Source: Escherichia phage vB_EcoM_CRJP21. Taken from it: a stretch of 64,000 bases of DNA. The notes beneath the pieces were generated by a model. The model saw only the letters and a list, made by a program, of their open reading frames with translations. It did not search any database and was not told where the DNA came from. The stretch lies in the sequence record OQ708376.1; one strand, 5' to 3'. The position numbers and the translations under genes were made by a program. This document shows, in pieces, positions 578 through 18,790 of the stretch (the stretch's first letter is position 1; the number at the start of each line of letters is the position of its first letter).

Positions 578-597
578 CCACCAGCACAAGCTGGTGG
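578..597. repeat. inverted pair of Chi-like octamers CCACCAGC-acaa-GCTGGTGG (8-bp stem hairpin)
   Basis: direct read of sequence. Confidence 0.6.
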
Positions 598-721
598 ATT
601 CCCTCTAACAGTATTCAGTACTACATGATGGTCTTCATCCTCCTAGGGTAACATAGTGAGGGCTATGATGGCAGTACTGAATACTCCCTTTCAAAAGATA
701 GATCTATGGTATAGTACTGAC

Positions 722-762
722 GGATTTTGGGCGTAGTTACCCTGGATGGATTTTGGGCGTAG
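722..762. repeat. 2x direct repeat GGATTTTGGGCGTAG
   Basis: two identical 15-mers separated by 11 bp. Confidence 0.6.
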
Positions 763-789
763 ATATGTCTAGCCCTCCAGAAGTCTGGA

Positions 790-910
790 AGTAAAGATGG
801 CTATCCATCTAGACGGCTAAACGGCTAGATTTCTGGATGGCTGGATGGCTAGACGTTTGGACGGCTAAACGGCTAGATGGTTACACGTCTGGAAGTATAG
901 ACGGCTAAAT
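790..910. repeat. iteron-like cluster (GACGGCTAAACGGCTAGAT x2, GGATGGCT x3, TCTGGAAGTA x2)
   Basis: short direct repeats in non-coding DNA. Confidence 0.6.
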
Positions 911-1080
911 CAAAATTTTATTTTGTTTTTTCCAATAGTTCCCCTACCGCGTGGGGATAGTTTCCCCGCAGTATCTGGTGTTAGATTTTTCTGAATCTGG
1001 AATCATTATCTTATAAACTGGGGGCAATGTCAACGGCCTGGCCGGATATTTTTAAAAATTTTTTCAGTACTGAATTTTGG

Positions 1081-1145
1081 GCGTAACTATGCACCCGGTG
1101 GGCTTGAGTCTTTCTCGACTTGATGGAACTATTATACAGTACTGG
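1081..1145. repeat. R1 element copy 1 (GCACCCGGTGGG...CTTGATG...CAGTACTGG)
   Basis: about 60-bp element recurring at 3246 and 4778. Confidence 0.5.
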
Positions 1146-1536
1146 AAAAATAAAGCAATACCCTGGAAGCAAAAAAGTTTTAATTAATTTGCTTGCTATC
1201 CTGGGCCGGACTATGGTACTATATTTCAGTACTGAGAAAGTGCGTTTACCTGCTAGGGTGCGGGAGTGTATCCTTTTTTTATATCTTGAATTTTGGACGG
1301 ATCTTCCCACCCCCTGGGGTATCCGCTTTCTCGCGTCTATGTAGTAATTATACGCTTTTTCAGGATCAAGTCAATACCTAAAAACAAAATAATTGAAAAT
1401 AATTTAACGCGTTTAAACGGCCTGTAAAGCCCTGGAATGATTGGAATGGTGCAAATGTATAGCTTATGTGTATTAATGCGTTAGAATGCGTCTGAGGACG
1501 TTTTACGGGGTATAGGGATGATTTAGTGGATTGATT

Positions 1537-1624
1537 CAGTACTGAATAATAGTACTCCTATATAGAAAGATAGTTCCCCTGGATGATTGCAGTACTGAAT
1601 AATAGTACTCCTATATAGAAAGAA
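1537..1624. repeat. tandem direct repeat of a 34-bp unit (CAGTACTGAATAATAGTACTCCTATATAGAAAGA)
   Basis: two copies spaced about 54 bp. Confidence 0.6.
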
Positions 1625-1654
1625 AACTATTTTAAAAGTATTTGTAGAAAGTAC

Positions 1655-1682
1655 TTGCACCGTACTGATAAAAGCGTATAAT
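1655..1682 (+). promoter_or_regulatory. sigma70-like promoter (TTGCAC, 16 bp, TATAAT)
   Basis: consensus-like -35/-10 upstream of first gene. Confidence 0.6.
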
Positions 1683-1696
1683 GTTTTACATCGAGA

Positions 1697-1713
1697 GCGG
1701 GAACACTTCCCGC
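1697..1713 (+). promoter_or_regulatory. palindromic leader hairpin/operator GCGGGAA-cac-TTCCCGC
   Basis: first of about 20 similar GGGGAA-nnn-TTCCCC palindromes placed just after promoters. Confidence 0.55.
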
Positions 1714-1737
1714 TACACATTAAGAGAGATTAAAACG

Positions 1738-2100
1738 ATGGCGACTCAAATCAATAAAATCATGCTTAACCTGGTAAACTTCCGCGATGAGATGAAAGGT
1801 CTTCCGGCTGAAACTGTAAAAATTCACATTGCAGCTTATCGGGAACTTATTGCAATGTTGCCGCTTAAGCGTGAACAATACGCCGCTACTTTGATGCTGG
1901 ATTCAATGATCCATATAATGATCTCAAATGATTTGACGATGGTTTATCAGTATATGGGCGAAAATTTCGCGGTGTGTAGTAAGCCAGTACCAGGGATGGC
2001 AACAACTGAGGAATTGCACGGCTTAAACTTAAAACAAGATGCATGGGATAATATGCCTCGTTTCCTGGTATGGGCTGACAGTGGCAAAATTTACAAATAA
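1738..2100 (+). CDS. hypothetical protein (120 aa)
   Basis: track ORF restarted at internal ATG downstream of promoter and hairpin. Confidence 0.6.
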   Translation: MATQINKIMLNLVNFRDEMKGLPAETVKIHIAAYRELIAMLPLKREQYAATLMLDSMIHIMISNDLTMVYQYMGENFAVCSKPVPGMATTEELHGLNLKQDAWDNMPRFLVWADSGKIYK

Positions 2101-2114
2101 GTTTAATAAAGTAC

Positions 2115-2142
2115 TTGCAAACTATGTTTAATGGCGTATAAT
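2115..2142 (+). promoter_or_regulatory. sigma70-like promoter (TTGCAA, 16 bp, TATAAT)
   Basis: AAAGTACTTGCAA...GCGTATAAT consensus of this region. Confidence 0.65.
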
Positions 2143-2193
2143 GTTTTACATCAGGTGGGGAATAGTTCCCCACTATATAAGAGGATTAAAAAA

Positions 2194-2433
2194 ATGGCTA
2201 AATCAAAAATGTTCTTAGGTCACAAAAACAAAACTCATTGGAATGTAAGCCTTTGGATTAATAACGATGAGGGATTGTATCGGTTGGCCCAGGACTTTAT
2301 TAACGATAGCACTAATCGCAATGATGCGGCCCGTCATATGATGTTATTTTTAGAACAGACTGGACAAGATAAAACACCGGACGGATTCAAATATAGCACT
2401 ACTGCGATCCGTGCGGCGATGGTTGGAATGTAA
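2194..2433 (+). CDS. hypothetical protein (79 aa)
   Basis: internal ATG after promoter, hairpin 2156-2173 and RBS. Confidence 0.6.
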   Translation: MAKSKMFLGHKNKTHWNVSLWINNDEGLYRLAQDFINDSTNRNDAARHMMLFLEQTGQDKTPDGFKYSTTAIRAAMVGM

Positions 2434-2519
2434 TAGAATTTATTTAAAGTACTATCATTTTTTTGCGATAGTACTTTATAATAGTGTTTTATTCATACAC
2501 CAACGATAAGGGCAACAGC

Positions 2520-2786
2520 ATGAAAATTAAGTATTTTGCGACGCGTGAACAAGCTCGGATCGCCGCACGCCAGGACGGGGCAACGTTTAAAGATATGGGC
2601 GTACAATCGGAACGTGGTAAACGTTGGGCCATTGTAAAGCGTAGTACCGCCAGATCATTACAGTACTGGTTAGCGGCCTTAAAAAGTCCCGATAGTGTAT
2701 CGCGTCGAGTGGTAGAAATAAAGCTCGACCGAAAGGGCAACCGCGTGACCGTGTACCGTACTAAAAAGATTGCAGTACTTGAATAA
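2520..2786 (+). CDS. hypothetical protein (88 aa), paralog of 14497..14892
   Basis: shared KYFATREQARIAAR and DRKGNRVTVY motifs; RBS TAAGGG. Confidence 0.6.
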   Translation: MKIKYFATREQARIAARQDGATFKDMGVQSERGKRWAIVKRSTARSLQYWLAALKSPDSVSRRVVEIKLDRKGNRVTVYRTKKIAVLE

Positions 2787-2793
2787 AAAGTAC

Positions 2794-2821
2794 TTGCAAA
2801 CTATGTTTAATGGCGTATAAT
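2794..2821 (+). promoter_or_regulatory. sigma70-like promoter (TTGCAA, 16 bp, TATAAT)
   Basis: near-identical to promoter at 2115. Confidence 0.65.
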
Positions 2822-2873
2822 GTTTTACATCGAGAGCGGGAACTCTTCCCGCCTATAACCTGGAGTAATGAAA

Positions 2874-3104
2874 ATGACTAATATGTATATGACTGAAGTT
2901 AAAACCGTAAAAGATACTACCACGAATAAAACTACTTACTTACAGCGGATCTGTGGTGTATGGCAACGTATCAGCAAATCAAAGTACTTTAAATTAACAT
3001 CATATGCAAACCGTTCGGATTCATTCAGTACTGAAATAAAAGGTAATAAAGTACACCAATACGGCACTTATTATTATTATAGCCTGGACGCGATTGCAGT
3101 ATAA
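2874..3104 (+). CDS. hypothetical protein (76 aa)
   Basis: ATG 8 nt after GGAG; hairpin 2836-2852. Confidence 0.55.
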   Translation: MTNMYMTEVKTVKDTTTNKTTYLQRICGVWQRISKSKYFKLTSYANRSDSFSTEIKGNKVHQYGTYYYYSLDAIAV

Positions 3105-3186
3105 GCAGTTTACAAATCTTTACAATTGCCGGTATTGACTTATTTTGTCAGTACTGGCATAATGTATTCATTGGCAGATAAGCCGT

Positions 3187-3214
3187 AGCCCATAGGGTGC
3201 GGGAGTGTATCTAT
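3187..3214. repeat. R2 motif copy (AGCCCATAGGGTGCGGGAGTGTATCTAT)
   Basis: about 28-bp motif recurring at about 9172, 13194, 16469, 18721. Confidence 0.55.
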
Positions 3215-3245
3215 AGAAAAATTAGTTTAGTATAGTTACAATTGT

Positions 3246-3303
3246 GCACCCGGTGGGTTAGCTGTTGTCATGGGGTATATTATACCAGTACTTGATAATG
3301 CTG
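3246..3303. repeat. R1 element copy 2
   Basis: matches 1081..1145 and 4778..4833. Confidence 0.5.
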
Positions 3304-3354
3304 TCAATACTTTTTTTTTACTATTCAGTACTGAAAACTATTTTTAAAAAGTAC

Positions 3355-3382
3355 TTGCAAACTATGTTTAAAGGCGTATAAT
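3355..3382 (+). promoter_or_regulatory. sigma70-like promoter (TTGCAA-TATAAT), upstream member of tandem pair
   Basis: consensus boxes. Confidence 0.6.
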
Positions 3383-3389
3383 GTTTTAC

Positions 3390-3465
3390 ATCAGGACGGG
3401 GAACGAAATAAGTAACTTCCCGTTAAGTAGCCCAGGAGTAAGGCACACGAAAAACTCCCCTGATA
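3390..3465 (+). ncRNA. candidate structured leader / small RNA (copy 1)
   Basis: about 75-nt element with two imperfect hairpins between tandem promoters; second copy at 13300..13375. Confidence 0.35.
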
Positions 3466-3472
3466 AAATAGT

Positions 3473-3500
3473 TTGACAAATGTTTTTAAAAGCGTATAAT
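3473..3500 (+). promoter_or_regulatory. sigma70-like promoter (TTGACA, 16 bp, TATAAT)
   Basis: consensus boxes, proximal to gene 3533. Confidence 0.6.
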
Positions 3501-3532
3501 ACTTACATCAACTACTGAATGAGGGTTACAAA

Positions 3533-4144
3533 ATGAAAACTATCACTACTACTACTTATGTTATGGCTTTTTCTGAATTGAACGCAGAACAACAAACGTC
3601 AGCTATCGAACTGGTTCGGGAACGTGAAAAAAACTCAAACGACAATTATTTTTCTGAAAGTGAAATTGAATACTATAAAGAAACAGTACTACCGGAATAT
3701 GGCATTAATGACGCTGAAATACAATTCAGTGGTTTTTGGTCCCAGGGTGACGGTGCATCAATCAGTACTGACCACGTTGACGCAGTGAAGTTTTTACGCA
3801 AGGTAAGAGCATTAACTAAGTATCGCTCAATCCGTCACTTGCTGAATGAAGATGATTTGGCGATGAGTGTAAAACGTTCGCACTCCCACTACTCGCATGA
3901 GAATACTGTAAGCGGGTACATTGAATCGGCTTACACTGATTTAACCGCAAAACAAGAAACGTTAGTTAATGAGCTTGAGGAACTACTCACTGAAACTATT
4001 CGTGAATTGTCCCGCAAGTTGTACCGTGATTTAGAGAATGCATATGAGGATCAATTCACTACTGAAAACATTACGGCACTGATTGAGGGTAACGAATATC
4101 AATTCAATGTTATTGATGGCGTAGTAGAATCAATCGAATATTAA
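3533..4144 (+). CDS. hypothetical protein (203 aa)
   Basis: track ORF; RBS GAGGG 7 nt upstream. Confidence 0.7.
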   Translation: MKTITTTTYVMAFSELNAEQQTSAIELVREREKNSNDNYFSESEIEYYKETVLPEYGINDAEIQFSGFWSQGDGASISTDHVDAVKFLRKVRALTKYRSIRHLLNEDDLAMSVKRSHSHYSHENTVSGYIESAYTDLTAKQETLVNELEELLTETIRELSRKLYRDLENAYEDQFTTENITALIEGNEYQFNVIDGVVESIEY

Positions 4145-4156
4145 TTTAAAAAGTAC

Positions 4157-4184
4157 TTGCAAACTAAGTTTAAAAGCGTATAAT
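4157..4184 (+). promoter_or_regulatory. sigma70-like promoter (TTGCAA, 16 bp, TATAAT)
   Basis: consensus boxes. Confidence 0.6.
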
Positions 4185-4236
4185 ACTTTATATCGAGAGC
4201 GGGAATAGTTCCCGCTACTAATGAGGAATACTACAA

Positions 4237-4401
4237 ATGAATACTTTTACCTTCGCTCAATTGAACGCCCTGGATGTATTGTCTGATGCTTTGCGGGATG
4301 CAACTGAAAGCGGTTTATTTGACAATGTTGACATTCACCCTGATGTAATTAATAATTTTTGTGATGCTATCGCAGAAGTACTGGAAGATCTAAAAAAATA
4401 A
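4237..4401 (+). CDS. hypothetical small protein (54 aa, not in ORF track)
   Basis: hand translation MNTFTFAQLNALDV...; promoter + hairpin + RBS upstream. Confidence 0.55.
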   Translation: MNTFTFAQLNALDVLSDALRDATESGLFDNVDIHPDVINNFCDAIAEVLEDLKK

Positions 4402-4411
4402 TAGAAAGTAC

Positions 4412-4439
4412 TTGCAATTAGTTTTCAGTACTGTATAAT
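4412..4439 (+). promoter_or_regulatory. sigma70-like promoter with extended -10 (TTGCAA ... TGTATAAT)
   Basis: consensus boxes. Confidence 0.65.
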
Positions 4440-4489
4440 GGTTTACATCAAAGGGAGAAATGGTTCTCCCTGGTAATGAGGAAAATACA

Positions 4490-4711
4490 ATGGCTAATAT
4501 CACTACTCTTTCCCAACTGGAAGCACTGGTTAAATCTATGCGGGAACATGCTGACAAAATCGGCGTACAAGATCCAGCCGTTTGCTTCTGCGACGAATTG
4601 AATGATGATACCCTGGTAATAGCAGAAGTCCAGGACGTTTCTAACTATTCCTCGCGTTACACTGGCGGCGTAGCAAATAAAGGTGACTTCTGTTTATACC
4701 TTACAAAATAA
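4490..4711 (+). CDS. hypothetical protein (73 aa)
   Basis: internal ATG after leader hairpin 4453-4470; track start lies inside the hairpin. Confidence 0.6.
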   Translation: MANITTLSQLEALVKSMREHADKIGVQDPAVCFCDELNDDTLVIAEVQDVSNYSSRYTGGVANKGDFCLYLTK

Positions 4712-4712
4712 C

Positions 4713-4748
4713 AACGCGGGGAGATAATAACTCCCCGTTACTTTTTCA
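4713..4748 (+). terminator. rho-independent terminator (GC stem + T-run)
   Basis: CGGGGAG-ataataa-CTCCCCG then CTTTTT. Confidence 0.6.
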
Positions 4749-4777
4749 GTACTGAATCATTTAATAGACGGATCTCG

Positions 4778-4833
4778 GCACCCGGTGGGTTAGTGACTGT
4801 TTCGTCTTGATGTAGTAATTATGCCAGTACTGG
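4778..4833. repeat. R1 element copy 3
   Basis: GCACCCGGTGGGTTAG...CTTGATGTAGTAATTATGCCAGTACTGG. Confidence 0.5.
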
Positions 4834-4954
4834 ATGCACTTGTCAACAATTATTTTCCAAATACTTTTTATTAAAATACTTGCAATTAGTTTTTAAACGC
4901 GTATAATGTTTTGCATAGGGGGAGCGGTTCCCCTGGTAACTAAGGAATAATAAA

Positions 4955-5191
4955 ATGCTTGAACAAATCAAATCAACGTCTTCGAATGTAACGGGAACGG
5001 TAGCACACTTTACTAGTGATGAATCGCGGGGCGTTCCCTATTGTGCTGTACATGTAAACACTGAGGGTAACTACTGGTTTACGGTTTACGGATCATATTC
5101 ATTTGGACGGCCTGGACATCAAAAAATTCTGGATAAAGTACAACCAACGGGTAAAAATATCACTGCCGAAATGTTTTATAAAAAATCATAA
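4955..5191 (+). CDS. hypothetical protein (78 aa)
   Basis: track ORF; promoter + GGGGAGCGGTTCCCC hairpin + RBS. Confidence 0.65.
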   Translation: MLEQIKSTSSNVTGTVAHFTSDESRGVPYCAVHVNTEGNYWFTVYGSYSFGRPGHQKILDKVQPTGKNITAEMFYKKS

Positions 5192-5275
5192 AGTACTTGC
5201 AATTAGTTTTTAGTACTGTATAATATTTTACATCGCAAGGGGAAACGGTTTCCCCTGGTAACTAAGGATAATCAA

Positions 5276-5575
5276 ATGAAAATTGCAATCATCGCCCTGG
5301 CTTTATCTGTTTCCTCTTTCGCTGTTAATGCGTCATTAGATGTAAGTAGTGAAAAATTCATTCAGTGCACTGTTGCAATGACCGATGAAAGAACTGGCGA
5401 GATTGTATTAAAGGATTTAGAGATCCAGCCGGAAGCATTTAAAAACGGCCCGTTCCATGAAGAAGACGAAAACGGTAGCACGACAATTTATTATGATGCC
5501 AGTACTAAACGCGGTTCGGTCACTGTAATGGATACCGAGAAAGTAACTCATACCGGCGTTATTAATTGCCGTTGA
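5276..5575 (+). CDS. small secreted/periplasmic protein (Sec-type signal peptide)
   Basis: N-terminus MKIAIIALALSVSSFAVNA with AxA-like cleavage site. Confidence 0.6.
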   Translation: MKIAIIALALSVSSFAVNASLDVSSEKFIQCTVAMTDERTGEIVLKDLEIQPEAFKNGPFHEEDENGSTTIYYDASTKRGSVTVMDTEKVTHTGVINCR

Positions 5576-5596
5576 TAGATACTACGGGGTAACATC

Positions 5597-5827
5597 ATGA
5601 CTAAGCGAATTGTTTTACTTAACGAAAGCAGTACTACACAACTACTTAACGCCGTGCATTATGATATTGAAACGAGCGTTAATCTTATCAGTACTGTAGT
5701 TCTGTTGGACACTGGAAAGGTAGCCAATGATAAAGCGATTGCAGGTATACTAACGGATCTTGTGCCTGGTAGCAGTGCACCAATAACGTTAAATGGTAAA
5801 GTGTTTAATATTTTACTCACTGATTAA
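5597..5827 (+). CDS. hypothetical protein (76 aa)
   Basis: track ORF followed by terminator. Confidence 0.55.
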   Translation: MTKRIVLLNESSTTQLLNAVHYDIETSVNLISTVVLLDTGKVANDKAIAGILTDLVPGSSAPITLNGKVFNILLTD

Positions 5828-5833
5828 GTACAT

Positions 5834-5857
5834 AGCCCACCTGGTGGGCTTTTTTGT
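5834..5857 (+). terminator. rho-independent terminator
   Basis: AGCCCAC-ctg-GTGGGCT + TTTTTTG. Confidence 0.7.
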
Positions 5858-6060
5858 TTTTGTAGTATCGTAGTACTGAGATACTTTGAAAATAGTTTTA
5901 AAAAAGTAGTTGACATTACCACAGAAAAGCGTAGAATGTATTACATCAAGACGGGGAGCACTAAGTAGACCGCCAGTAAGTCGAACGAAAAACTGGACAC
6001 GTCGAGAAAACTTTGATACACTAATAAACGTAAACTAAACTTTAATTGAGGATTTATAAA

Positions 6061-6543
6061 ATGGCTAATGTAAAATCATTCATCAAAGCACTGGTAGCAA
6101 ATGAAACTAACGTCGCGGCTGAGATCCTGGCTGAACTGGATAACGATACCATGAAAGCGGTACGCAACAATTTTAACATTGCGTACAGTGAAGCTAAAGA
6201 ACTGCAAGCCAAAAAGGTAGCAGAACTGGAAGAACAGAAAAAAGCCCGTGAAGCAGAACTACAAGCAACAATTGAAAGTATTCAGGCGGCAGTGTCTGGA
6301 TTGGATCTGGAAGTGGTTGTAGAAATGGCACATAAAGCCCTGGCGGTTAAGTACGGTGAAGATAAGCCGGAATCTAAACCTAAAAAATGGATTCAAGAAC
6401 GTGTTACTGTAGTACTTGATAACGGTGAAGAACATTTGATTCCTGTACGCGGTAACTGCATTGCGGTAGTACTGGACGCTATCAAAGAAAGCGGTATGAC
6501 TCGCGAGGAATGGATCGAAGCTCATCGCAAAGTTGAAGCATAA
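6061..6543 (+). CDS. hypothetical protein (160 aa)
   Basis: ATG 8 nt after GAGGA; promoter TTGACA/TAGAAT at about 5908-5936. Confidence 0.65.
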   Translation: MANVKSFIKALVANETNVAAEILAELDNDTMKAVRNNFNIAYSEAKELQAKKVAELEEQKKAREAELQATIESIQAAVSGLDLEVVVEMAHKALAVKYGEDKPESKPKKWIQERVTVVLDNGEEHLIPVRGNCIAVVLDAIKESGMTREEWIEAHRKVEA

Positions 6544-6564
6544 CAATTAAAGTACTGAATCACT

Positions 6565-6592
6565 AGCCCACCTTAAACAGTGGGCTTTTTTG
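6565..6592 (+). terminator. rho-independent terminator
   Basis: AGCCCAC-loop-GTGGGCT + TTTTTT. Confidence 0.7.
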
Positions 6593-6610
6593 TGTCTGTA
6601 GTATTCCAGT

Positions 6611-6680
6611 CCACCAGCACCGCCTAGAATCGATTCTAACGCATTAAACTGATTATCTGATACATCGCCCTAGCTGGTGG
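6611..6680. repeat. inverted Chi-like octamer pair (CCACCAGC ... GCTGGTGG) flanking inverted R4 motif
   Basis: direct read. Confidence 0.55.
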
Positions 6681-6828
6681 CGTTAAGGTCGTTAGAATGC
6701 GATTGAGAGCGTTTAAAGTATTTTGCAAAAAGTAATAAAAAGTACTTGCACGATTAAGAGATTAGCGTATAATGTTTTACATCGAGAGGGGGAAACGGTT
6801 CTCCTTCCAAATCAAAGGAATCAAAACA

Positions 6829-7056
6829 ATGGCTATTATCATTACTCGCGTATCTGGTACTACTGGCAACGAACAAGTAGTTGCAGTCATTACTAACAAG
6901 GCAGGTGCGGAATTGCAAAATGCAATGAATACCTGGGCCGTTAATGAGTTCGGTCAGTGGGCAAGTGTAGCATACATTGAAACCTATCAAGTGCCGTCGA
7001 TTAGTTTAACTGATTTGGGCGTTGAGCGTATCCTTTGCCTGGATGAATTAAATTAA
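6829..7056 (+). CDS. hypothetical protein (75 aa), MAII-start paralog group
   Basis: internal ATG after promoter and hairpin; N-terminus resembles 7143 and 10054 genes. Confidence 0.6.
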   Translation: MAIIITRVSGTTGNEQVVAVITNKAGAELQNAMNTWAVNEFGQWASVAYIETYQVPSISLTDLGVERILCLDELN

Positions 7057-7142
7057 AAAAAGTACTTGCAAAGTAAATCGAATAAAGTATAATACATTAC
7101 ATCAAGGGGAGAAATGATTCTCCCCACTACAAGGAAACTAAA

Positions 7143-7355
7143 ATGGCTATCATTACTAAAATCAAAGTTAACAAGACTATCGTTAAACTGGCAGAAGTGA
7201 AAGAAGGTTATAAAGTATCTTGGTGCGGTATGTATCGGACGTTCGCAGATATAGATGATGCGATCAATTATTACAGTGACACGGTTAAAAACTTTGTTCG
7301 TGCTGATGTGGTTATGGCAGTGGCAACATATAAAGCAGCGAAAGAAAGTAAGTAA
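7143..7355 (+). CDS. hypothetical protein (70 aa), MAII-start paralog group
   Basis: track ORF; promoter + GGGGAGAAATGATTCTCCCC hairpin. Confidence 0.65.
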   Translation: MAIITKIKVNKTIVKLAEVKEGYKVSWCGMYRTFADIDDAINYYSDTVKNFVRADVVMAVATYKAAKESK

Positions 7356-7374
7356 AAATATTATCACAGTACTA

Positions 7375-7403
7375 TTGACATAGTTTGATAGTACTGGCAT
7401 AAT
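7375..7403 (+). promoter_or_regulatory. class-II promoter (AGTACT-flanked TTGACA, 17 bp, CATAAT), no leader hairpin
   Basis: same architecture at about 9990, 10258, 18047. Confidence 0.6.
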
Positions 7404-7446
7404 AGATTTTATCAAGACGACACATATTAATTTAAGGAATACTAAA

Positions 7447-11866: not shown

Positions 11867-12055
11867 ATGGAAAACTTATCAAGTATTTTAGTACAAGATG
11901 ATTTCGGTAATCCTGGAAGTGCTATCATTGTTCGGGGTAATAAAGCAACATTTGTTATTGCTGGTGGACCTGTACAGCGTAGCATTAAAAACAATGCCGT
12001 TACTATTAATAATGTACGCTATCGCTTAGATAAAGAATTGATTCATAAACTGTAA
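11867..12055 (+). CDS. hypothetical protein (62 aa)
   Basis: second ATG, 7 nt after AAGAGGA. Confidence 0.55.
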   Translation: MENLSSILVQDDFGNPGSAIIVRGNKATFVIAGGPVQRSIKNNAVTINNVRYRLDKELIHKL

Positions 12056-12082
12056 TATTAATTTAATAGAGGATAACAATAA

Positions 12083-12406
12083 ATGTACATTCATACTACT
12101 ATCACAAAGGAAGTCCGTTGCCAGTTCGAAAGTATTCCGGGCGTATGTTTCATCACTGGTACGTTTTCCCCTGGTGATCGTGATAATCCAGTACTGTTAC
12201 AATTACGCCATCCATCATGGGATAAAGCATTTGATCTACCGTTGAATGAATTCGCAACTACTGCTGAAAAGTACATTAAAAATATTCGCGAGAATGATCG
12301 ACTATTCATTAATGCTTTTAGTGATTCCGCGTTAAGCGAGATCCACGGTGTATTGGTTGCAATCATGGAATCAATGGAGAAAACTAAATTCAAACAAGGT
12401 GAATAA
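12083..12406 (+). CDS. hypothetical protein (107 aa)
   Basis: track ORF; RBS AGAGGA. Confidence 0.6.
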   Translation: MYIHTTITKEVRCQFESIPGVCFITGTFSPGDRDNPVLLQLRHPSWDKAFDLPLNEFATTAEKYIKNIRENDRLFINAFSDSALSEIHGVLVAIMESMEKTKFKQGE

Positions 12407-12412
12407 AAACTA

Positions 12413-12440
12413 TTGACAAGATAATCTAGTACTGTATAAT
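12413..12440 (+). promoter_or_regulatory. sigma70-like promoter with extended -10 (TTGACA, 16 bp, TGTATAAT)
   Basis: consensus boxes. Confidence 0.65.
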
Positions 12441-12489
12441 AAGTTACATGAAGGGGAGAAATGATTCTCCCCACTGAGAGGAAAGAAAA

Positions 12490-12702
12490 ATGCAAGGTCA
12501 ACTAATCGTTCGTAAATGGTCTGATACTAACGCTAAACCGTGGGATGTACAATACATCGGACCGGATGGGGTATCACGTTATCAGCCTGGCGTAACGCAT
12601 AGTACTGAGCAATATGCCGCCGCTCACCGCGAACGCCTGTTAGAATCCATGAAACAGGGATACGGTGAAAAATTCATTCAAGATCATTGGCTGAAAGATT
12701 AA
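12490..12702 (+). CDS. hypothetical protein (70 aa)
   Basis: track ORF; promoter + hairpin. Confidence 0.6.
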   Translation: MQGQLIVRKWSDTNAKPWDVQYIGPDGVSRYQPGVTHSTEQYAAAHRERLLESMKQGYGEKFIQDHWLKD

Positions 12703-12719
12703 TATAAGGAGTACAGCTT

Positions 12720-12812
12720 ATGCAAATGAATCCGATGATTATTGTTTTAGCTGTACTTATGATCATTCATGCAATAGTAGAAGTATTAACGCAATCAGGA
12801 GTAATAAAATGA
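12720..12812 (+). CDS. small hydrophobic peptide (30 aa, predicted TM)
   Basis: strong RBS TAAGGAG 8 nt upstream; MQMNPMIIVLAVLMIIHAIVEVL... Confidence 0.5.
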   Translation: MQMNPMIIVLAVLMIIHAIVEVLTQSGVIK

Positions 12813-12982
12813 TTCAAGTAGAATTATCAGTACTGAAAGATCTGTTTTATCGGTTAGGTACTACTGGCGAGTATCCTAAAAGTGATACCGCAAAACTTTT
12901 TGTATCACTCGACTTATGGCAACGCGAACAATTAGTAATGTCCTGGCGTAAAGGTAAAGCAGATAGCGAGGTGAAAGCATGA
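12809..12982 (+). CDS. hypothetical small protein (57 aa, not in track)
   Basis: ATGA coupling to upstream peptide. Confidence 0.45.
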   Translation: MIQVELSVLKDLFYRLGTTGEYPKSDTAKLFVSLDLWQREQLVMSWRKGKADSEVKA

Positions 12983-13128
12983 AAGAATTCTTATTCGAAG
13001 TAGTGTTTCAAGGTGTCGGTAGTAACCAACTGATTCGCTCAAGTGGTTACAATGTTAACCAGGCATGGAATAACATTAAACAAATGTACCCGAACGCTAT
13101 CACCTATCGCAACCCGAAACAAGTTTAA
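12979..13128 (+). CDS. hypothetical small protein (49 aa, not in track)
   Basis: ATGA coupling. Confidence 0.45.
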   Translation: MKEFLFEVVFQGVGSNQLIRSSGYNVNQAWNNIKQMYPNAITYRNPKQV

Positions 13129-13137
13129 AAATAATTG

Positions 13138-13234
13138 AAAAAGGGATTGACTCCGGTCAGTCCCTTTGCTATTATATACGCATAGAAACAAATCAGCCCA
13201 CAGGGTGCATAAATGTATCTATTGTTTGCTGGTG
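13138..13234 (+). repeat. intergenic cassette copy B (R3 hairpin-promoter + R2) followed by Chi octamer 13227-13234
   Basis: near-identical to copies at 9111, 16409, 18667. Confidence 0.55.
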
Positions 13235-13299
13235 GCTAGTACTGAAAACTATTTTTAAAAAAGTACTTGCATTGTACTTAGAATCAAGTATAATGTTTT

Positions 13300-13375
13300 A
13301 CATCAGGACGGGGAACGAAACAAGTAACCCCGTTAAGTAGTCCAGGAGTAAGACATAAGAAAACCTCCCCTGATA
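13300..13375 (+). ncRNA. candidate structured leader / small RNA (copy 2)
   Basis: about 90 percent identical by eye to 3390..3465; between tandem promoters. Confidence 0.35.
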
Positions 13376-13443
13376 AAATAGTTTGACAATAGAAAGTAAA
13401 CGAGTATAATACTTACATCAACCACTGATAAGGAAACATTAAA

Positions 13444-13719
13444 ATGCGGATTCTACTGACAGCTAACGAAATCGAACAAGTACTGACTACTAACCTGGAA
13501 GACTGGAAACGTGAAGCAGATATCCAGGCGGTTCAACGGCTTAACGATGAGTTAACGCCGGATGACTTAAGCAAGATTGTAGATCCTCAATTCTACGAAG
13601 ATATCCACGACACCGCGTTAAGCGTCGAGGATGTACTAGATAAGCACTACATTGATATTGATTTGCAGGTTTACGGTCGTAAAAACTTTATCACTATTCA
13701 CGACATTTACAATAATTAA
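13444..13719 (+). CDS. hypothetical protein (91 aa)
   Basis: track ORF; promoter TTGACA-16-TATAAT at 13382-13409. Confidence 0.65.
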   Translation: MRILLTANEIEQVLTTNLEDWKREADIQAVQRLNDELTPDDLSKIVDPQFYEDIHDTALSVEDVLDKHYIDIDLQVYGRKNFITIHDIYNN

Positions 13720-13805
13720 GTATTGACAAAGTATCTTAGTACTGTATAATAGTTTACATCGAGAGGGGGAATGGTTCCCCTCCTAACAAAGAGAGAGAAA
13801 TAAAA

Positions 13806-13988
13806 ATGGCTAAATGCACTATCTGTAAGAAAGAAATCGTATTAGTTCCAAGTGCCCGTGAACGTGCCGCTCGGTTCGGTGGCAAAGCGTCAGACTATAC
13901 AAAAATGTTTACTACCCATGCAGCTTGCCAGGTAGCAAAACGTTCACAAGAAAGCGTAGAATTAATGCGTAAACTTTCCAAAAAATAA
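13806..13988 (+). CDS. hypothetical protein (60 aa, Cys-containing)
   Basis: track ORF; promoter + GGGGGAATGGTTCCCCTCC hairpin. Confidence 0.6.
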   Translation: MAKCTICKKEIVLVPSARERAARFGGKASDYTKMFTTHAACQVAKRSQESVELMRKLSKK

Positions 13989-14077
13989 GTATTGACAAAG
14001 TATCTTAGTACTGTATAATAGTTTACATCAAGCGAGGGGAATGGTTCCCCTCCTAACTAAAAGAGAGAGAAATAAAA

Positions 14078-14401
14078 ATGGCTATGATCCTTACCCAGAA
14101 AGTAGAACTGAAAATTGTAACCTCCTTTGACATTAAAGTTAATCGCTGGACTGATCGGAACGGTAACACTTACCACTCTTGCTACGTGTCCGCGTTAATT
14201 GGCGACCGCTGGGAAGACTTGGGACATGAAACCTTTACTTACGGTTACGGTACACAAGGAGAATACACGGGCTTGGAGATCATTAAAGAAACCGTTATAG
14301 GTTTCAACCCGAAAGAAAAAGTTATTCACCGCATCGAAAAAGAGATTAACAAAGAAATAACAGTTCGCTACTACGATGTAAAACGTAAGAAAGACATGTA
14401 A
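14078..14401 (+). CDS. hypothetical protein (107 aa), paralog of 7447..7770
   Basis: promoter/leader duplicated from the 13727 copy. Confidence 0.65.
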   Translation: MAMILTQKVELKIVTSFDIKVNRWTDRNGNTYHSCYVSALIGDRWEDLGHETFTYGYGTQGEYTGLEIIKETVIGFNPKEKVIHRIEKEINKEITVRYYDVKRKKDM

Positions 14402-14496
14402 TAGAATCCATTTAAAGTACTATTTGACATTGCCCAGATAGTACTTTATAATAGACTCTAACTTGTAGTACTAACTCAACTAATAGGATGTATACC

Positions 14497-14892
14497 ATGA
14501 TTACTAAATTCTACGCTACCCGTGAAGCTGCCCGTATTGTTGCACGCGAGGAAGGAGCAGCATTTAAAGACATGGGCAAAGATGCACCGAAAGGTCAACG
14601 CTGGGCCGTACAGTTCAAAGAAATCTCTGATATCGTGAATTCACCGGAGCCAGTACTAACAGCAGCAGAACTAAAACGAGCGGATTTACTGGCGGCAGTA
14701 CTTAACGCACAAGATGAATTTATCGCTGATTCTGATATCAAAGTACAGACAAACCATACCGCTTGGACTCACGCGGATCACCTGGCAAACCTTAAGCGTC
14801 CAAGTGAACTGGTTCGCAACCAGAAAGAGATCCGACACGACCGTAAGGGTAATCGTGTAACAGTATACAGTAAACGCCGCCAGGTTATCTAA
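14497..14892 (+). CDS. hypothetical protein (131 aa), paralog of 2520..2786
   Basis: ATG 8 nt after TAGGA; shared motifs. Confidence 0.6.
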   Translation: MITKFYATREAARIVAREEGAAFKDMGKDAPKGQRWAVQFKEISDIVNSPEPVLTAAELKRADLLAAVLNAQDEFIADSDIKVQTNHTAWTHADHLANLKRPSELVRNQKEIRHDRKGNRVTVYSKRRQVI

Positions 14893-14914
14893 TAACTTGC
14901 AGTACTAACAACAC

Positions 14915-14940
14915 GGCGGGATCAGTTCCCGCCTTTTTTA
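14915..14940 (+). terminator. rho-independent terminator
   Basis: GGCGGGA-tcagt-TCCCGCC + TTTTTT. Confidence 0.75.
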
Positions 14941-14954
14941 TAGGATAAACTAAA

Positions 14955-15209
14955 ATGATTAAGGTACAACTATCTAAAGATAATATCTTGCGGGTACACT
15001 ATAAAGCACCACAGAGAATCATCACAAAGGCCGTACAGCTTGCTAATGAGTTTATTAATGGTAACCTATTACCAAGGAAGTTAAGCAACGGAAAACTGCG
15101 TGTAATCGATGTAGACACTAACAACAGAATAGTAATTGAGAACACAGGAAAGATAAACCTATATGAACACCAACAATATAATAAGAAAATAAAACTAATA
15201 TCACGTTGA
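14955..15209 (+). CDS. hypothetical protein (84 aa)
   Basis: track ORF. Confidence 0.55.
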   Translation: MIKVQLSKDNILRVHYKAPQRIITKAVQLANEFINGNLLPRKLSNGKLRVIDVDTNNRIVIENTGKINLYEHQQYNKKIKLISR

Positions 15210-15262
15210 CAGTACTCAATTGTTTTAGTACTATGTACATATACCAACACGGGAGAAACAAA

Positions 15263-15481
15263 ATGAAATTATCTAAAATCGAAAAGAAAACTATTGATGA
15301 AGCAGTTAAGCACGGTTATACCTTTCGTAATGATTCACATTTTACCAATTTTCAACAAGGGTATCGTACTATTAAAAAACTCATTGACAAAGGTTTATTA
15401 GTTGAAGTCAATAACGGCAATGGTATTGAGTATCAACCAACACAAGACGCATTTTATTTTAAGAAATATAATATTATCTAA
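15263..15481 (+). CDS. hypothetical protein (72 aa)
   Basis: internal ATG after promoter TTGACAGTACTCAA... Confidence 0.55.
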   Translation: MKLSKIEKKTIDEAVKHGYTFRNDSHFTNFQQGYRTIKKLIDKGLLVEVNNGNGIEYQPTQDAFYFKKYNII

Positions 15482-15539
15482 TTGACAGTACTCAAATGTT
15501 TTAGTACTATATGTACATACCAACACGGGGAAAAACAAA

Positions 15540-15782
15540 ATGATTACTTTAGAAAAACGTATCAAAGAAACTACATCGCTGGTGGAACTGTTAACAGTAC
15601 TGAAATGCCGTACTACTCGGTTTAGTACACCGGACTTTATTAATATGGTTGATGTTAATGGTCGCTATCGTATCACGGTCGAACAAGGAGCGGCGAAAGT
15701 ATTCAGTACTAAAAACACTAAGGAAGTGATTCACGCTGTAAGTGTTAAAAAAGTAGTTGCCATTGATAGTAAAGTACTGTAA
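15540..15782 (+). CDS. hypothetical protein (80 aa)
   Basis: track ORF; promoter duplicated from upstream gene. Confidence 0.55.
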   Translation: MITLEKRIKETTSLVELLTVLKCRTTRFSTPDFINMVDVNGRYRITVEQGAAKVFSTKNTKEVIHAVSVKKVVAIDSKVL

Positions 15783-15813
15783 GATAGTTTCATTAACTCA
15801 AGGAGAACATGCA

Positions 15814-16398
15814 ATGCGTAATTATACTAAATTCATCCGTACCCTGTCAGAAATGGAAACCAACAAAGAGATCCTTTCAGCTTGTCGGTTAGCTGGTCTG
15901 GAGATCATCGGTGCGGGTTCTTCCCGTATTGTATTCGCTTTAAATGATCGGTTAGTGATTAAGGTCGCGAATTGTGATGCGGGTGTAGAACAAAATGAAA
16001 CTGAATGTAAGGTATGGAATTTTTTAGATTATGACCGCCCTCAATTGAAACAGTACTTTGCAAAGGTGCATATGCATTTATGCGATCCTGATAATATGTT
16101 TATCGTTATGGATCGGTTGAGTACTGCAAGTAAAGGCAGTGTAAAGCACGTAAACGCGTGCAATGAATTAAAGTACAATATTAAACGTAATGCCATTGAA
16201 CGCCAGCACCGCTTTGCTGATGCACTACAACACGTTGATGATACATTATCAACACTAACGATAAGAGATATCAGAAAACAGAATATCGGCCAGGATCGTA
16301 ATGGCCTTATTAAAGTACTTGATTACGGTTTAACCCGCAATATCTGGAATCAGTACTATAAAAAGCGTGATGTAGAAGCAAGTAAGGTAACACGATAA
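15814..16398 (+). CDS. protein-kinase-like protein (ePK/RIO/Kdo-kinase-like fold)
   Basis: Gly-rich loop IGAGSSRIVF, Lys motif VIKV, catalytic-loop-like IRDIRKQNIG, DFG-like LDYG; RBS AGGAG. Confidence 0.5.
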   Translation: MRNYTKFIRTLSEMETNKEILSACRLAGLEIIGAGSSRIVFALNDRLVIKVANCDAGVEQNETECKVWNFLDYDRPQLKQYFAKVHMHLCDPDNMFIVMDRLSTASKGSVKHVNACNELKYNIKRNAIERQHRFADALQHVDDTLSTLTIRDIRKQNIGQDRNGLIKVLDYGLTRNIWNQYYKKRDVEASKVTR

Positions 16399-16408
16399 AA
16401 AAGATTAA

Positions 16409-16498
16409 AAAAGGGATTGACTCCGGTCAGTCCCTTTGCTATTATATATTCATTGAGAGATAACTCACTGACCCATAGGGTGCGGAAGTGTATCTATT
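16409..16498 (+). repeat. intergenic cassette copy C (R3 + R2)
   Basis: near-identical to other copies. Confidence 0.55.
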
Positions 16499-16619
16499 AT
16501 ATAAGTATTCAGTACTGAAAACTATTTTTAAAAAAGTACTTGCATTGTACTTAGAATCAAGTATAATGTTTTACATAGAGAGGGGGAAATGGTTCTCCCT
16601 GGTAATAAGGAATAAAATC

Positions 16620-16841
16620 ATGACTACAATGACTTGCATTTACGCTTCCAATCTTCTGAATGATGCGGCCTTTAATGTTGATTCAGAATATCAATGTTAT
16701 CGGGATGAAAATAAAAAAGTTTTTGTAGTTGATAATAATGGTTTCCATATTGAATTACAATCCGGTTTCACTGGTGTTGATGGTAAATCAGTGTGGGGCG
16801 TACAGGATGATAAAGGCACATATCATTTTAAACGTAATTAA
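16620..16841 (+). CDS. hypothetical protein (73 aa)
   Basis: internal ATG after promoter and hairpin. Confidence 0.6.
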   Translation: MTTMTCIYASNLLNDAAFNVDSEYQCYRDENKKVFVVDNNGFHIELQSGFTGVDGKSVWGVQDDKGTYHFKRN

Positions 16842-16925
16842 GTATTGACAAAGTATATCAGTACTGTATAATAGTTTACATCAAGGGGAGAATAGTTCTC
16901 CCCGATACTAAAAGGAAACAAAATT

Positions 16926-17198
16926 ATGTCCAGCTACTCCGCTACTATGATCATTAAAGATATGAACGGTAATCCTACTTCTGCTGGTGGATCATTTGGA
17001 AACATTAATTTAGATGGTCGGTTATCCATGCAATCAGCCATCGATGCAGCGAAAGAAGTTTTTAAGAATGAATGTACTGTTAGTAAGATGGATTATATGG
17101 GATTCGCTATCGAGAAAACTAATCGTTTTGTGAACTACAAAAATCCACTGATGATTGATACTAACCTGAAAGCTAACGAAGTGGGGTACTTATTATGA
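16926..17198 (+). CDS. hypothetical protein (90 aa)
   Basis: track ORF; promoter TTGACA...TGTATAAT + hairpin. Confidence 0.6.
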   Translation: MSSYSATMIIKDMNGNPTSAGGSFGNINLDGRLSMQSAIDAAKEVFKNECTVSKMDYMGFAIEKTNRFVNYKNPLMIDTNLKANEVGYLL

Positions 17199-17386
17199 CA
17201 GTAGAAGAAGTTAAAAAAGTACTGGCAGTACTACGCTATCATAATCATTGCAAGGTGAAGAATGATCCTGATTATGTTGATTCATCCCTGGAGGAAGACA
17301 CATTAAACGCAATAAGCCATATGCAAACATTAGCAAAGCGTATGACCGAAAAGAATAGACCGGACTATATCGGAAATAAAATTTAA
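17195..17386 (+). CDS. hypothetical protein (63 aa)
   Basis: ATGA translational coupling. Confidence 0.55.
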   Translation: MTVEEVKKVLAVLRYHNHCKVKNDPDYVDSSLEEDTLNAISHMQTLAKRMTEKNRPDYIGNKI

Positions 17387-17472
17387 AAAGTACTTGCATT
17401 GTAGTTAGATTAACGTATAATGTTTTACATAGAGCGGGGGAATAGTTCTCCCGCCAGTCCAGGAGATACACC

Positions 17473-17736
17473 ATGAACACTATCGAAATCACTATCAATG
17501 CACACGTATACGACAACGTAGTACTGCAAACTACTATGACCGCTAATGATACCAGTACTTTGCGGAATACCGTTGTAAGTGCTGTATGTGCTGCAATCGG
17601 TGATGTAGCCCTGGAAAATGCAGAACACATCAACAACGGTTTCACTATGTGCAAACGTGATAACGCAAAACATATCATCTTAGAAGGTTACGGCGGTGTA
17701 GAATATAATCTTTATATGAAAAAAGTACTTGCATAA
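17473..17736 (+). CDS. hypothetical protein (87 aa)
   Basis: track ORF; promoter + hairpin; RBS AGGAGA. Confidence 0.65.
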   Translation: MNTIEITINAHVYDNVVLQTTMTANDTSTLRNTVVSAVCAAIGDVALENAEHINNGFTMCKRDNAKHIILEGYGGVEYNLYMKKVLA

Positions 17737-17803
17737 TAACTAAAACAAAGTATAATGTTTTGCATAGGGGGAGATATCCTCCCCCACTAAAAGGAGTAAT
17801 AAA

Positions 17804-18028
17804 ATGGCTAACTTTGATGAACTGATGCGGGAAGTAGCTAACCTGGCAGAAGAGAAGAAATCATTCGATTCTATCTATAACACCGCTCACCGTGATTCAG
17901 TACTGGCATGTACTCAGGATCAAAAAGATGAACTAATCGCCACCTATCATGAAGCATGGAAGTACTACCGACAATGGGAGAAAGAAGAAAGTGAGTCTAC
18001 CATTGACGGCCTCAATAATCTAATCTAA
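17804..18028 (+). CDS. hypothetical protein (74 aa)
   Basis: track ORF; promoter overlaps stop of upstream gene. Confidence 0.6.
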   Translation: MANFDELMREVANLAEEKKSFDSIYNTAHRDSVLACTQDQKDELIATYHEAWKYYRQWEKEESESTIDGLNNLI

Positions 18029-18104
18029 AAGTTTTATTTCAGTACTATTGACATAGCTTGATAGTACTGATGTAATAACTTTACTAACTACAAGGGGAAA
18101 CATA

Positions 18105-18362
18105 ATGGAACAGTTCACACAATATCGGGTAAATCCTCAAGCTATGGCCTACGTAGAAGACCATAAAACATTACCAGTACTGCAACCAGTTAAAGGCCAT
18201 ATCTATCGTGCTATGTCGTGGAGTACTGCACAGGATGGATATAAAACCGTTGCCGTGGGTATGTATTGCGGGAATGGTGAATGGTTTGATCCAAATAATC
18301 CGGTAGCCATTGACAGTACTGAAAAAATGAAATGGGCCGACTACATCGAAGATATTTCATAA
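18105..18362 (+). CDS. hypothetical protein (85 aa)
   Basis: track ORF; class-II promoter. Confidence 0.6.
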   Translation: MEQFTQYRVNPQAMAYVEDHKTLPVLQPVKGHIYRAMSWSTAQDGYKTVAVGMYCGNGEWFDPNNPVAIDSTEKMKWADYIEDIS

Positions 18363-18451
18363 AACTATTTGACAGTACTAACCAGTAATGTATAATGTTT
18401 TACATAGAGCGGGGGAATAGTTCTCCCGTCAATAGTTTGGAGTAAAACATT

Positions 18452-18652
18452 ATGTCTATCGCTATCGCCCTGGTTGAAGTACTGAAAGAAGCTAAAGCCA
18501 ACCTTATCGATGTACAGATTAAGGAATTACAAAATGGTTTAATCGGCTGTACTTGTACCGCTGGTGGAGCGGCAGACTATCGGGAATTCGAATCACTTGA
18601 ATCGATGGTCCGTTATCTTACCATGATCGTAGAAGATTGGAGAATCATCTAA
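18452..18652 (+). CDS. hypothetical protein (66 aa)
   Basis: track ORF; promoter + hairpin. Confidence 0.6.
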   Translation: MSIAIALVEVLKEAKANLIDVQIKELQNGLIGCTCTAGGAADYREFESLESMVRYLTMIVEDWRII

Positions 18653-18666
18653 CAAAAAAGAATAAA

Positions 18667-18790
18667 AAAAGGGATTGACTCCGGTCAGTCCCTTTGCTAT
18701 TATATACTCATAGACAAAAACTAGCCCACTGGGTGCAGGAGTGTATCTAAAATATATAGTTAATAACGGTGAGTAACTATCTGCTGGTGG
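18667..18790 (+). repeat. intergenic cassette copy D (R3 + R2) followed by Chi octamer 18783-18790
   Basis: direct read. Confidence 0.55.

Follow-up and report, generated by a model that had tools for sequence, protein, structure and literature searches.

Concentration of Chi octamers in the long terminal repeat of an Asteriusvirus jumbo coliphage and its relatives

In Escherichia phage vB_EcoM_CRJP21 the Chi octamer of E. coli, GCTGGTGG, forms a dense cluster in the direct terminal repeat (DTR) of the genome. The window analysed here is the whole stretch of 64,000 nucleotides from record OQ708376.1 (one strand, 5' to 3'), and it represents the left end of the genome of a jumbo coliphage belonging to Asteriusvirus (121Q/PBECO4/G17 group). 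Counts in a complete relative show that the enrichment holds for the genome as a whole, but that it is owed overwhelmingly to the terminal repeat, the unique region being mildly enriched. We consider it probable, though well short of certain, that these octamers are functional Chi sites for the RecBCD enzyme of the host and that they were selected specifically within the 20-kb DTR.

Chi sites in the window and in a complete relative

Exact matches to the octamer number 12 in the window, while dinucleotide shuffles give an expectation of 0.37 for both strands together, and none of 100 dinucleotide-preserving shuffles contained more than two. Eleven of the 12 lie in the DTR (1-20,152), nine on the + strand and two on the - strand, all within 578-18790; the remaining 44 kb have one. 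The density in the DTR is one Chi per 1.83 kb. For the + strand of the first 20 kb, Markov models predict 0.16-0.29 sites, and the Poisson probability of at least nine is between 1e-13 and 1e-8. The sites, with the repeat and the inverted pair to which two of them belong, are as follows.

1..20152, no strand: direct terminal repeat, left copy, defined by homology and shared boundaries with mapped DTRs and by the GC profile
578..597, no strand: inverted Chi pair CCACCAGC-ACAA-GCTGGTGG in the non-coding leader, forming a perfect 8-bp palindrome (loop of 4 nt) 577 bp inward of the left terminus
578..585, - strand: Chi (CCACCAGC on the top strand); would be the first site for RecBCD entering the left terminus
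590..597, + strand: Chi, intergenic; innermost + site of the right-hand repeat copy
6611..6618, - strand: Chi, intergenic, 25 nt past a terminator hairpin
6673..6680, + strand: Chi, intergenic, 54 bp from the 6611 site
10498..10505, + strand: Chi, intergenic, in the right arm of a terminator-like hairpin
11960..11967, + strand: Chi in the open reading frame (ORF) 11861-12055, in-frame Ala-Gly-Gly
13228..13235, + strand: Chi, intergenic
15578..15585, + strand: Chi in ORF 15540-15782, Leu-Val (CTG GTG)
16983..16990, + strand: Chi in ORF 16926-17198, in-frame Ala-Gly-Gly
18560..18567, + strand: Chi in ORF 18452-18652, in-frame Ala-Gly-Gly
18783..18790, + strand: Chi, intergenic; the + site farthest out, with 1,362 bp between it and the right terminus in the right-hand copy
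58765..58772, - strand: the sole Chi in the 44 kb beyond the repeat, outside the cluster; background comparator

A first-pass annotation, made from the letters of the window, had listed seven of these sites, all as intergenic. The seven exist and are intergenic, one of them a single base further on (13228-13235, not 13227-13234). However, its list omitted four + sites within its own range (11960, 15578, 16983 and 18560) and the - site at 58765, and those four lie in ORFs. Altogether 7/11 DTR sites are intergenic and 4/11 fall in small + strand ORFs, three as in-frame Ala-Gly-Gly and one as Leu-Val. The enrichment is thus stronger than had been claimed. The random expectation given there, about one per 65 kb per strand, was several-fold too high, because this DNA has a GC content of 32-39%. 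Both inverted pairs that it pointed out are real, the one at 578-597 as a perfect palindrome, but the arms of the second (6611-6618/6673-6680) are separated by 54 bp rather than 55.

The contexts of the sites are varied and include coding sequence, a terminator arm, promoter-proximal positions and the leader. At 10498 the hairpin needs three G-U wobble pairs to accommodate the Chi octamer, as though the same bases were under two constraints.

The assignment of positions 1-20152 to the left DTR copy follows from the boundaries, which map to the DTRs of relatives. Over its first 17 kb the window matches Escherichia phages fEgEco12 and vB_Ec-M-J at 95-96% identity, with the alignment starting from base 1 of both records, and bases 1-400 are 99% identical to bases 1-400 of fEgEco12. 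Farther in, at 40-62 kb, identity is 97-98% to many members of Asteriusvirus. The fEgEco12 DTR of 20,993 bp was determined with PhageTerm and confirmed by restriction digests (fEgEco12 paper), and in the vB_Ec-M-J record a 21,525-bp direct terminal repeat is annotated from base 1. The right boundary falls at window position 20,152 both by the end of the G17 record and by the end of the fEgEco12 DTR. Base composition changes there as well, from 38% GC in the DTR to 32% beyond the boundary (30-34% outside). The second DTR copy lies outside the window. The closest relatives of the window are all E. coli phages, in agreement with the enterobacterial host suggested at first pass. The cluster had been described there as a feature of the left end; in fact it fills the whole 20-kb DTR and is present at the right end too.

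For a genome-wide count we used fEgEco12, the closest complete relative (374,733 bp, assembled from its parts). Here too the count is above expectation, and the enrichment stands. Each 20,993-bp DTR copy carries 10 + and 2 - Chi, or one per 1.75 kb. The unique region (332,747 bp) carries 14 + and 10 - Chi (24 together), one per 13.9 kb and about 2.3x the order-3 Markov expectation. The density in the DTR is therefore 7.9-fold that of the unique region (binomial p = 6e-7). Even Markov models of orders 1-4 trained on the fEgEco12 DTR itself predict at most 0.53 + sites, versus 10 observed. Next to the DTR, Chi is absent from the adjoining 6 kb on the left in 121Q and G17 and from those on the right in the window.

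Two smaller groups were seen in the unique region of fEgEco12. One, at 217.9-234.0 kb, has five + Chi in 16 kb over terminase, gp32, RecA and helicase genes. The other, at 333.8-347.3 kb, includes 6/10 of the - Chi of the unique region and lies in a - strand array of RCC1-like paralogues. Since these - strand sites cluster in a - strand gene array, Chi outside the repeat follows the coding strand.

Orientation, specificity of the octamer and recurrence across lineages

RecBCD that enters from the right end responds to Chi when GCTGGTGG is on the top strand (Zheng et al. 2025, PMC12315714). The DTR of the window has 9 + sites vs 2 -, and the pool of three genera, represented by the window (Asteriusvirus), fENko-Kae01 and CBB, has 28 + vs 6 - (p = 2e-4). 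In this pool the - sites tend towards the left boundary and the + sites towards the right one, with median relative positions of 0.33 vs 0.66 (Mann-Whitney p = 0.003), so the sites tend to face the nearer terminus. As both DTR copies are identical, one sequence must serve both ends. The + sites would be read from the right terminus, so that the main cluster would act on the right end by way of the second repeat copy; the - sites at 578 and 6611 alone face left. An enzyme coming from the right terminus would meet its first active Chi after 1,362 bp in the window (nine in total within 20 kb), 375 bp in fENko-Kae01 and 1,429 bp in CBB; coming from the left terminus of the window, it would do so at 577 bp, with two such sites in all. 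The idea put forward at first pass, that Chi in both orientations could guard the termini, is supported in part: two - sites do face left, but 9/11 face right.

The exact octamer is the enriched unit. The 24 one-mismatch variants of Chi occur three times together in the DTR, vs 4.15 expected, and are not enriched. In the DTR the base after each of the nine + strand GCTGGTG heptamers is G (9/9). Of the 168 words that can be made by permuting the Chi letters, Chi alone exceeds three copies there. No shared consensus was found in the flanks of the DTR Chi sites.

Several other sources of the cluster were considered and rejected. Chi is not carried by a longer repeat unit, given the lack of a flank consensus and the varied coding and intergenic contexts. 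It is not linked to promoters or to the palindrome CAGTACTG, its distances from them ranging from 17 to 984 bp; these other strongly over-represented DTR words, CAGTACTG and the promoter-like AGTACTTGCA, belong to features unrelated to Chi. Nor is the repeat host-derived DNA, with 38% GC and a Chi density above that of E. coli itself.

In coding sequence the word is also preferred at the codon level. Throughout the DTR ORFs of five lineages, 13/14 Ala-Gly-Gly tripeptides are encoded as GCT-GGT-GGN, vs 2.2 expected from local codon usage (p = 5e-10), and permissive Leu-Val contexts in the same ORFs use CTG-GTG in 11/15 cases. This suggests selection acting on DNA rather than on protein, an argument which is weakened by the codon control described below.

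It is instructive to follow the cluster through the relatives. Five Asteriusvirus DTRs have 9-10 + and 1-2 - Chi each, and the sites are mostly orthologous among these close relatives, with some turnover. For example, the 6611(-) site is degraded in 121Q (CCGTCAGC) and in G17 (CCACTAGC); fEgEco12 has a private Chi site where its relatives have GCTGATGG or GCTGGGGA; and 121Q has one private site and lacks the one at 18560. The inverted pair at 578-597 was kept in 5/5 Asteriusvirus genomes compared. Its loop (586-589) is ACAA in the window and TTGT, the reverse complement, in 121Q, and the palindrome centre has apparently been flipped between close relatives. An inverted pair is present also in fENko-Kae01 at 484/496, with intact octamers, the loop TTAA and diverged flanks. 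A scan of IMG/VR for CCACCAGC-N4-GCTGGTGG returned 46 contigs, unrelated (mostly GC-rich) except for 121Q, a count that fits chance or ordinary hairpins.

Beyond Asteriusvirus, four more lineages were compared.

fENko-Kae01 (Klebsiella aerogenes; ~29% average nucleotide identity to fEgEco12): DTR 19,736 bp, Chi 12 + and 2 -; 2 in the next 30 kb
CBB (Pectobacterium; Mimasvirus): DTR 22,456 bp, Chi 7 + and 2 -; 3 in the next 27.5 kb
Muenster (Klebsiella pneumoniae; Alcyoneusvirus): DTR 20,030 bp, Chi 7 + and 1 -; 0 in the next 25 kb
XbC2 (reported on Xanthomonas): DTR 17,581 bp, Chi 7 + and 2 -; 0 in the next 12 kb

All five lineages, that of the window included, have a similar cluster, a + bias and confinement to the DTR. 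Between the window, fENko-Kae01 and CBB the DTRs cannot be aligned, except for short repeated promoter/terminator cassettes, and only one of the nine XbC2 Chi sites is orthologous to a site in CBB. With unalignable repeats and non-orthologous sites, the clusters must have been maintained independently, each ending at the repeat boundary. The pattern is shared by Klebsiella and Pectobacterium phages, and the known hosts of the group are almost all Enterobacterales. In three genera with otherwise unalignable repeats a second - Chi was noted at 6.5-7.0 kb, counted from the left terminus (relative position 0.32-0.36), namely at 6611 in the window, 7013 in fENko-Kae01 and 6454 in Muenster.

Possible readers of the octamer and the role of the repeat

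Octamer specificity, localisation to the DTR, polarity of orientation and position, and recurrence across lineages are observations made here. Which enzyme, then, reads these sites, and with what outcome? From the sequences we infer that RecBCD is the probable reader, and the outcome downstream may be protection or DTR-DTR recombination. The packaged genome is taken as linear, with an identical DTR at each end. RecBCD loaded on the right terminus would run leftwards, reach a first + Chi after 1.4 kb and meet nine of them in 20 kb; loaded on the left terminus, it would meet two - Chi, the first after 0.6 kb. Recognition of Chi would halt degradation while the enzyme is still in repeated DNA, and RecA would be loaded on the 3' tail. 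The RecA-coated tail could then pair with the other DTR copy, in the same molecule, in a sister molecule or in a concatemer. In this way the end would be rescued into a circle or a concatemer junction and the unique genome would be spared. Later in infection the same Chi sites would guard free concatemer ends. Confinement of Chi to the DTR would be explained by the fact that it is the only part of the linear genome where a resected end has a homologous partner. The authors of the fEgEco12 paper already assume circularisation via the repeats, without mention of Chi. The proposal of the first-pass annotation that terminal Chi attenuates RecBCD has published precedent in phage LLS, P1 and T5-like phages.

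RecBCD recognises Chi with an efficiency of about 30-40% per site. A calculation based on this rate gives ~1-4% of right-entering enzymes crossing the whole repeat unrecognised vs 36-49% of left-entering ones. The 9:2 asymmetry may reflect the end that enters first, or the end left free in packaging as in lambda and LLS.

Several facts weigh against host RecBCD as the reader of DTR-selected sites. With two left-facing sites the left end would be weakly protected. These phages also have recombination genes of their own: fEgEco12 encodes RecA/UvsX (PF00154), UvsY (PF11056), gp32, Mre11-like and Rad50-like proteins, all above Pfam cut-offs, a UvsW-like protein is also encoded in the phage group, and homologues of T4 UvsX and gp46/47 are described for CBB (CBB literature). 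Published surveys tie Chi-rich phages to the absence of a recombinase, and for T4-like UvsX phages the observed/expected ratio is 1.26. Chi is mentioned neither in the fEgEco12 paper nor in the Sharanji paper. The early genes without annotation could include small, fast-evolving inhibitors of RecBCD; on the other side, and in favour of RecBCD, the ~50 DTR ORFs showed none of the known inhibitor families, and the listed T4-core homologues of CBB include no gp2-type end protector. The unique region of fEgEco12 also encodes 10/14 Ala-Gly-Gly as Chi, vs 3.2 expected. The codon preference is hence genome-wide and supports selection on the word, not DTR specificity; what is specific to the DTR is density, with Ala-Gly-Gly 4x more frequent there and seven intergenic sites in ~6.6 kb of intergenic DNA. 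The octamer columns are not less variable than their flanks in five Asteriusvirus genomes (8/88 vs 256/2144 variable columns, p = 0.27), although these genomes are too similar to give the test power.

The phage XbC2 deserves separate mention. It was picked as a negative control and turned out to be Chi-rich in its own DTR. The cluster is of enteric type, yet the phage was isolated and host-ranged only on xanthomonads (Xanthomonas vesicatoria), a host not known to use enteric Chi. The GC content of XbC2 is 37.5% vs ~65% in the Xanthomonas host, and this mismatch, with its kinship to phages of Enterobacterales, makes the natural host uncertain. Either the natural hosts of XbC2 include Enterobacterales, or the reader of the octamer differs from enteric RecBCD. 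Chi motifs do differ between bacteria, that of Pseudomonas being GCTGGCGC and none being detectable in Yersinia; within Enterobacteriaceae the motif is conserved (literature). Because of the phages' own recombination genes and of XbC2, the RecBCD reading is likely and not proven.

The octamer might instead be read by a phage-encoded factor, such as the terminase/DTR-duplication machinery or gp46/47-UvsX, its identity with enteric Chi being coincidental or secondary. This we hold to be rather unlikely. The nine independently placed DTR copies kept by XbC2, though isolated on Xanthomonas, the complete T4-type recombination system of the group, and the palindromic pair, conserved in two genera at ~0.5 kb from the left end, which resembles a binding site for a dimeric protein, would all fit such a factor. 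However, the sequence is exactly enteric Chi and one-mismatch variants are not tolerated, the known hosts are almost all Enterobacterales, and orientation bias and density match those of published RecBCD-dependent phages. Moreover, a packaging signal normally occurs once, close to the end, and not in a dozen copies scattered over coding and intergenic DNA. The natural host of XbC2 is also uncertain, in view of its low GC and of a tested range of xanthomonads only. In a broader form, end-processing or recombination machinery of the phage would read the octamer in place of host RecBCD or besides it, and would load at the palindromic pair or use it as a boundary. This would account for the presence of the sites in a phage that encodes UvsX and for their retention by XbC2 on Xanthomonas, but we regard it as similarly improbable.

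It is also doubtful that the octamers have no function and are by-products of the local base composition, of a preference for the codon pair GCT-GGT and of common ancestry in a higher-GC, highly expressed early region. The GC content of the DTR is indeed above that of the rest of the genome, GCTGGTGG is preferred for Ala-Gly-Gly genome-wide, the - sites of the unique region follow the coding strand of their gene array, and in close Asteriusvirus relatives the sites are mostly orthologous and no more conserved than their flanks. Such a by-product is hard to reconcile with DTR-trained Markov models (to order 4), which fall short by 10 observed + sites to at most 0.53, with the 7/11 intergenic sites of the window DTR, with the lack of enrichment of same-composition neighbours and other same-letter octamers there, or with five lineages whose unalignable DTRs carry independently placed clusters stopping at the DTR boundary. 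Lastly, the sites may act through RecBCD with immune evasion as the benefit, for Chi limits RecBCD-dependent spacer acquisition. Halting near the ends would leave fewer fragments for acquisition of CRISPR spacers and for other end-sensing defences. All the sequence evidence cited for rescue of the ends fits this benefit equally, and the two are inseparable by sequence data; still, immune evasion gives no reason for the sites to stop exactly at the repeat boundary, which the need for a homologous partner explains, and we think it improbable as the principal benefit.

Other features of the repeat and comparison with known Chi-rich genomes

The DTR begins with a 1.7-kb repeat-rich non-coding leader, followed by ~50 small, separately spaced + strand early ORFs; about one third of it (~6.6 kb) is intergenic. 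The ORF products are nearly all without assigned function, the exceptions being a DksA-like protein, an acetyltransferase and a kinase-like protein. At 20.2 kb the architecture switches from spaced small ORFs inside the DTR to tightly overlapping ORFs outside. Inside there are sigma-70-like promoters (AGTACTTGCA ... TATAAT) and terminators reusing the stem AGCCCAC/GTGGGCT. No known RNA family was found in the DTR at gathering thresholds.

Near the left terminus, at 808-907 in the non-coding leader, lies an iteron-like array of imperfect 8-bp units CT[AG]GA[CT]GG (periods 8, 16, 24 and 48 in Tandem Repeats Finder, TRF), which may be a packaging or replication signal. In Asteriusvirus, fENko-Kae01, CBB and Muenster the repeats have the kinase-like early gene (15814-16398 in the window) in a similar place, at ~16-17 kb; in XbC2 it lies at ~6 kb. 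It is among the very few DTR genes kept across these genera. These relatives of the gene were detected by tblastn against an annotated phage collection; an alignment-based search for loci related to it confirmed none.

The palindromic octamer CAGTACTG is the top over-represented word of the window, with 62 copies (340-64000) vs ~0.7 expected, 33 of them within 1-20152. Its copies are split about evenly between coding and intergenic DNA, and some lie in promoter spacers directly 5' of TATAAT. It is equally extreme in the DTRs of relatives (Muenster 61, XbC2 28, CBB 21, fENko-Kae01 13). A phage does not usually carry a palindrome in such numbers, which suggests a site for phage-specific binding or modification.

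Among known Chi-rich systems the closest are LLS and related lambdoid phages, described as having no Rec module and high Chi (Zheng, Casjens, Davidson, Amundsen, Smith 2025, PMC12315714). Chi density is one per 1.86 kb in LLS, one per 1.90 kb in P1 and one per 4.6 kb in E. coli (PMC12315714). LLS resembles the present case in having exact Chi at ~1 per 1.9 kb, clustered near a genome end with a top-strand (right-entry) bias. It differs as a ~43-kb temperate-type lambdoid with cos ends and without recombinase, in which Chi is found genome-wide (half in the rightmost 22%), whereas here we deal with a ~350-kb virulent jumbo myovirus with its own UvsX/UvsY/gp46-47 and a cluster confined to the 20-kb DTR. 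Compared with that class as a whole, the fEgEco12 group shares terminal right-entry clustering but neither the absence of a recombinase nor the genome-wide density.

P1, with 50 Chi in 94.8 kb, is alike in its linear packaged genome, long terminal redundancy and similar density, and it cyclises by RecA/RecBCD recombination of the terminal redundancy, the type of host-dependent recombination of repeats that we propose here. However, P1 has no general recombinase, and its headful redundancy is circularly permuted, so that Chi is required throughout the genome; in the present phages, with their fixed ends, Chi is concentrated in the fixed repeat. T5-like phages, for which Chi observed/expected is 2.6 (Bobay et al. 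2013, PMC3784561), are likewise virulent coliphages with a long (~10-kb) DTR carrying early genes and with over-represented Chi. In T5 the first 30 kb have two Chi, both + and inside the DTR near its right boundary, a faint form of the layout seen here. The difference lies in the two Chi per DTR vs 11 here and in the scoring of T5-like phages as without recombinases. Bobay et al. (2013, PMC3784561) did not report that Chi is localised to the DTR, and the words 'terminal', 'orientation' and 'clustered' are absent from their text. The E. coli chromosome has the identical octamer, strand-polarised and over-represented, but its polarity follows the direction of replication, while here Chi is 2.5-fold denser, in 38% GC DNA, and its polarity relates to the genome termini. 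New in comparison with P1, T5-like phages and LLS are the confinement to a long fixed repeat, the outward-facing polarity and the conserved inverted pair near the left terminus. We found no report of Chi in the repeats of Rak2-like or Asteriusvirus phages in the openly searchable literature, subscription literature aside.

Virulent jumbo phages with a full T4-type recombination system thus concentrate Chi at P1/LLS density in their 20-kb end repeats. If host RecBCD does read these sites, the long repeat would be a buffer where the host nuclease directed against linear DNA is stopped and turned into an end-joining enzyme, and the confinement of Chi to the repeat would get a concrete reason, as the repeat is the sole homologous partner of a resected end. 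This would offer a directly testable view of genome establishment in Rak2-like jumbo phages, whose early infection is almost unstudied. As these phages are under development for therapy, the recBCD status of the host could affect their efficacy.

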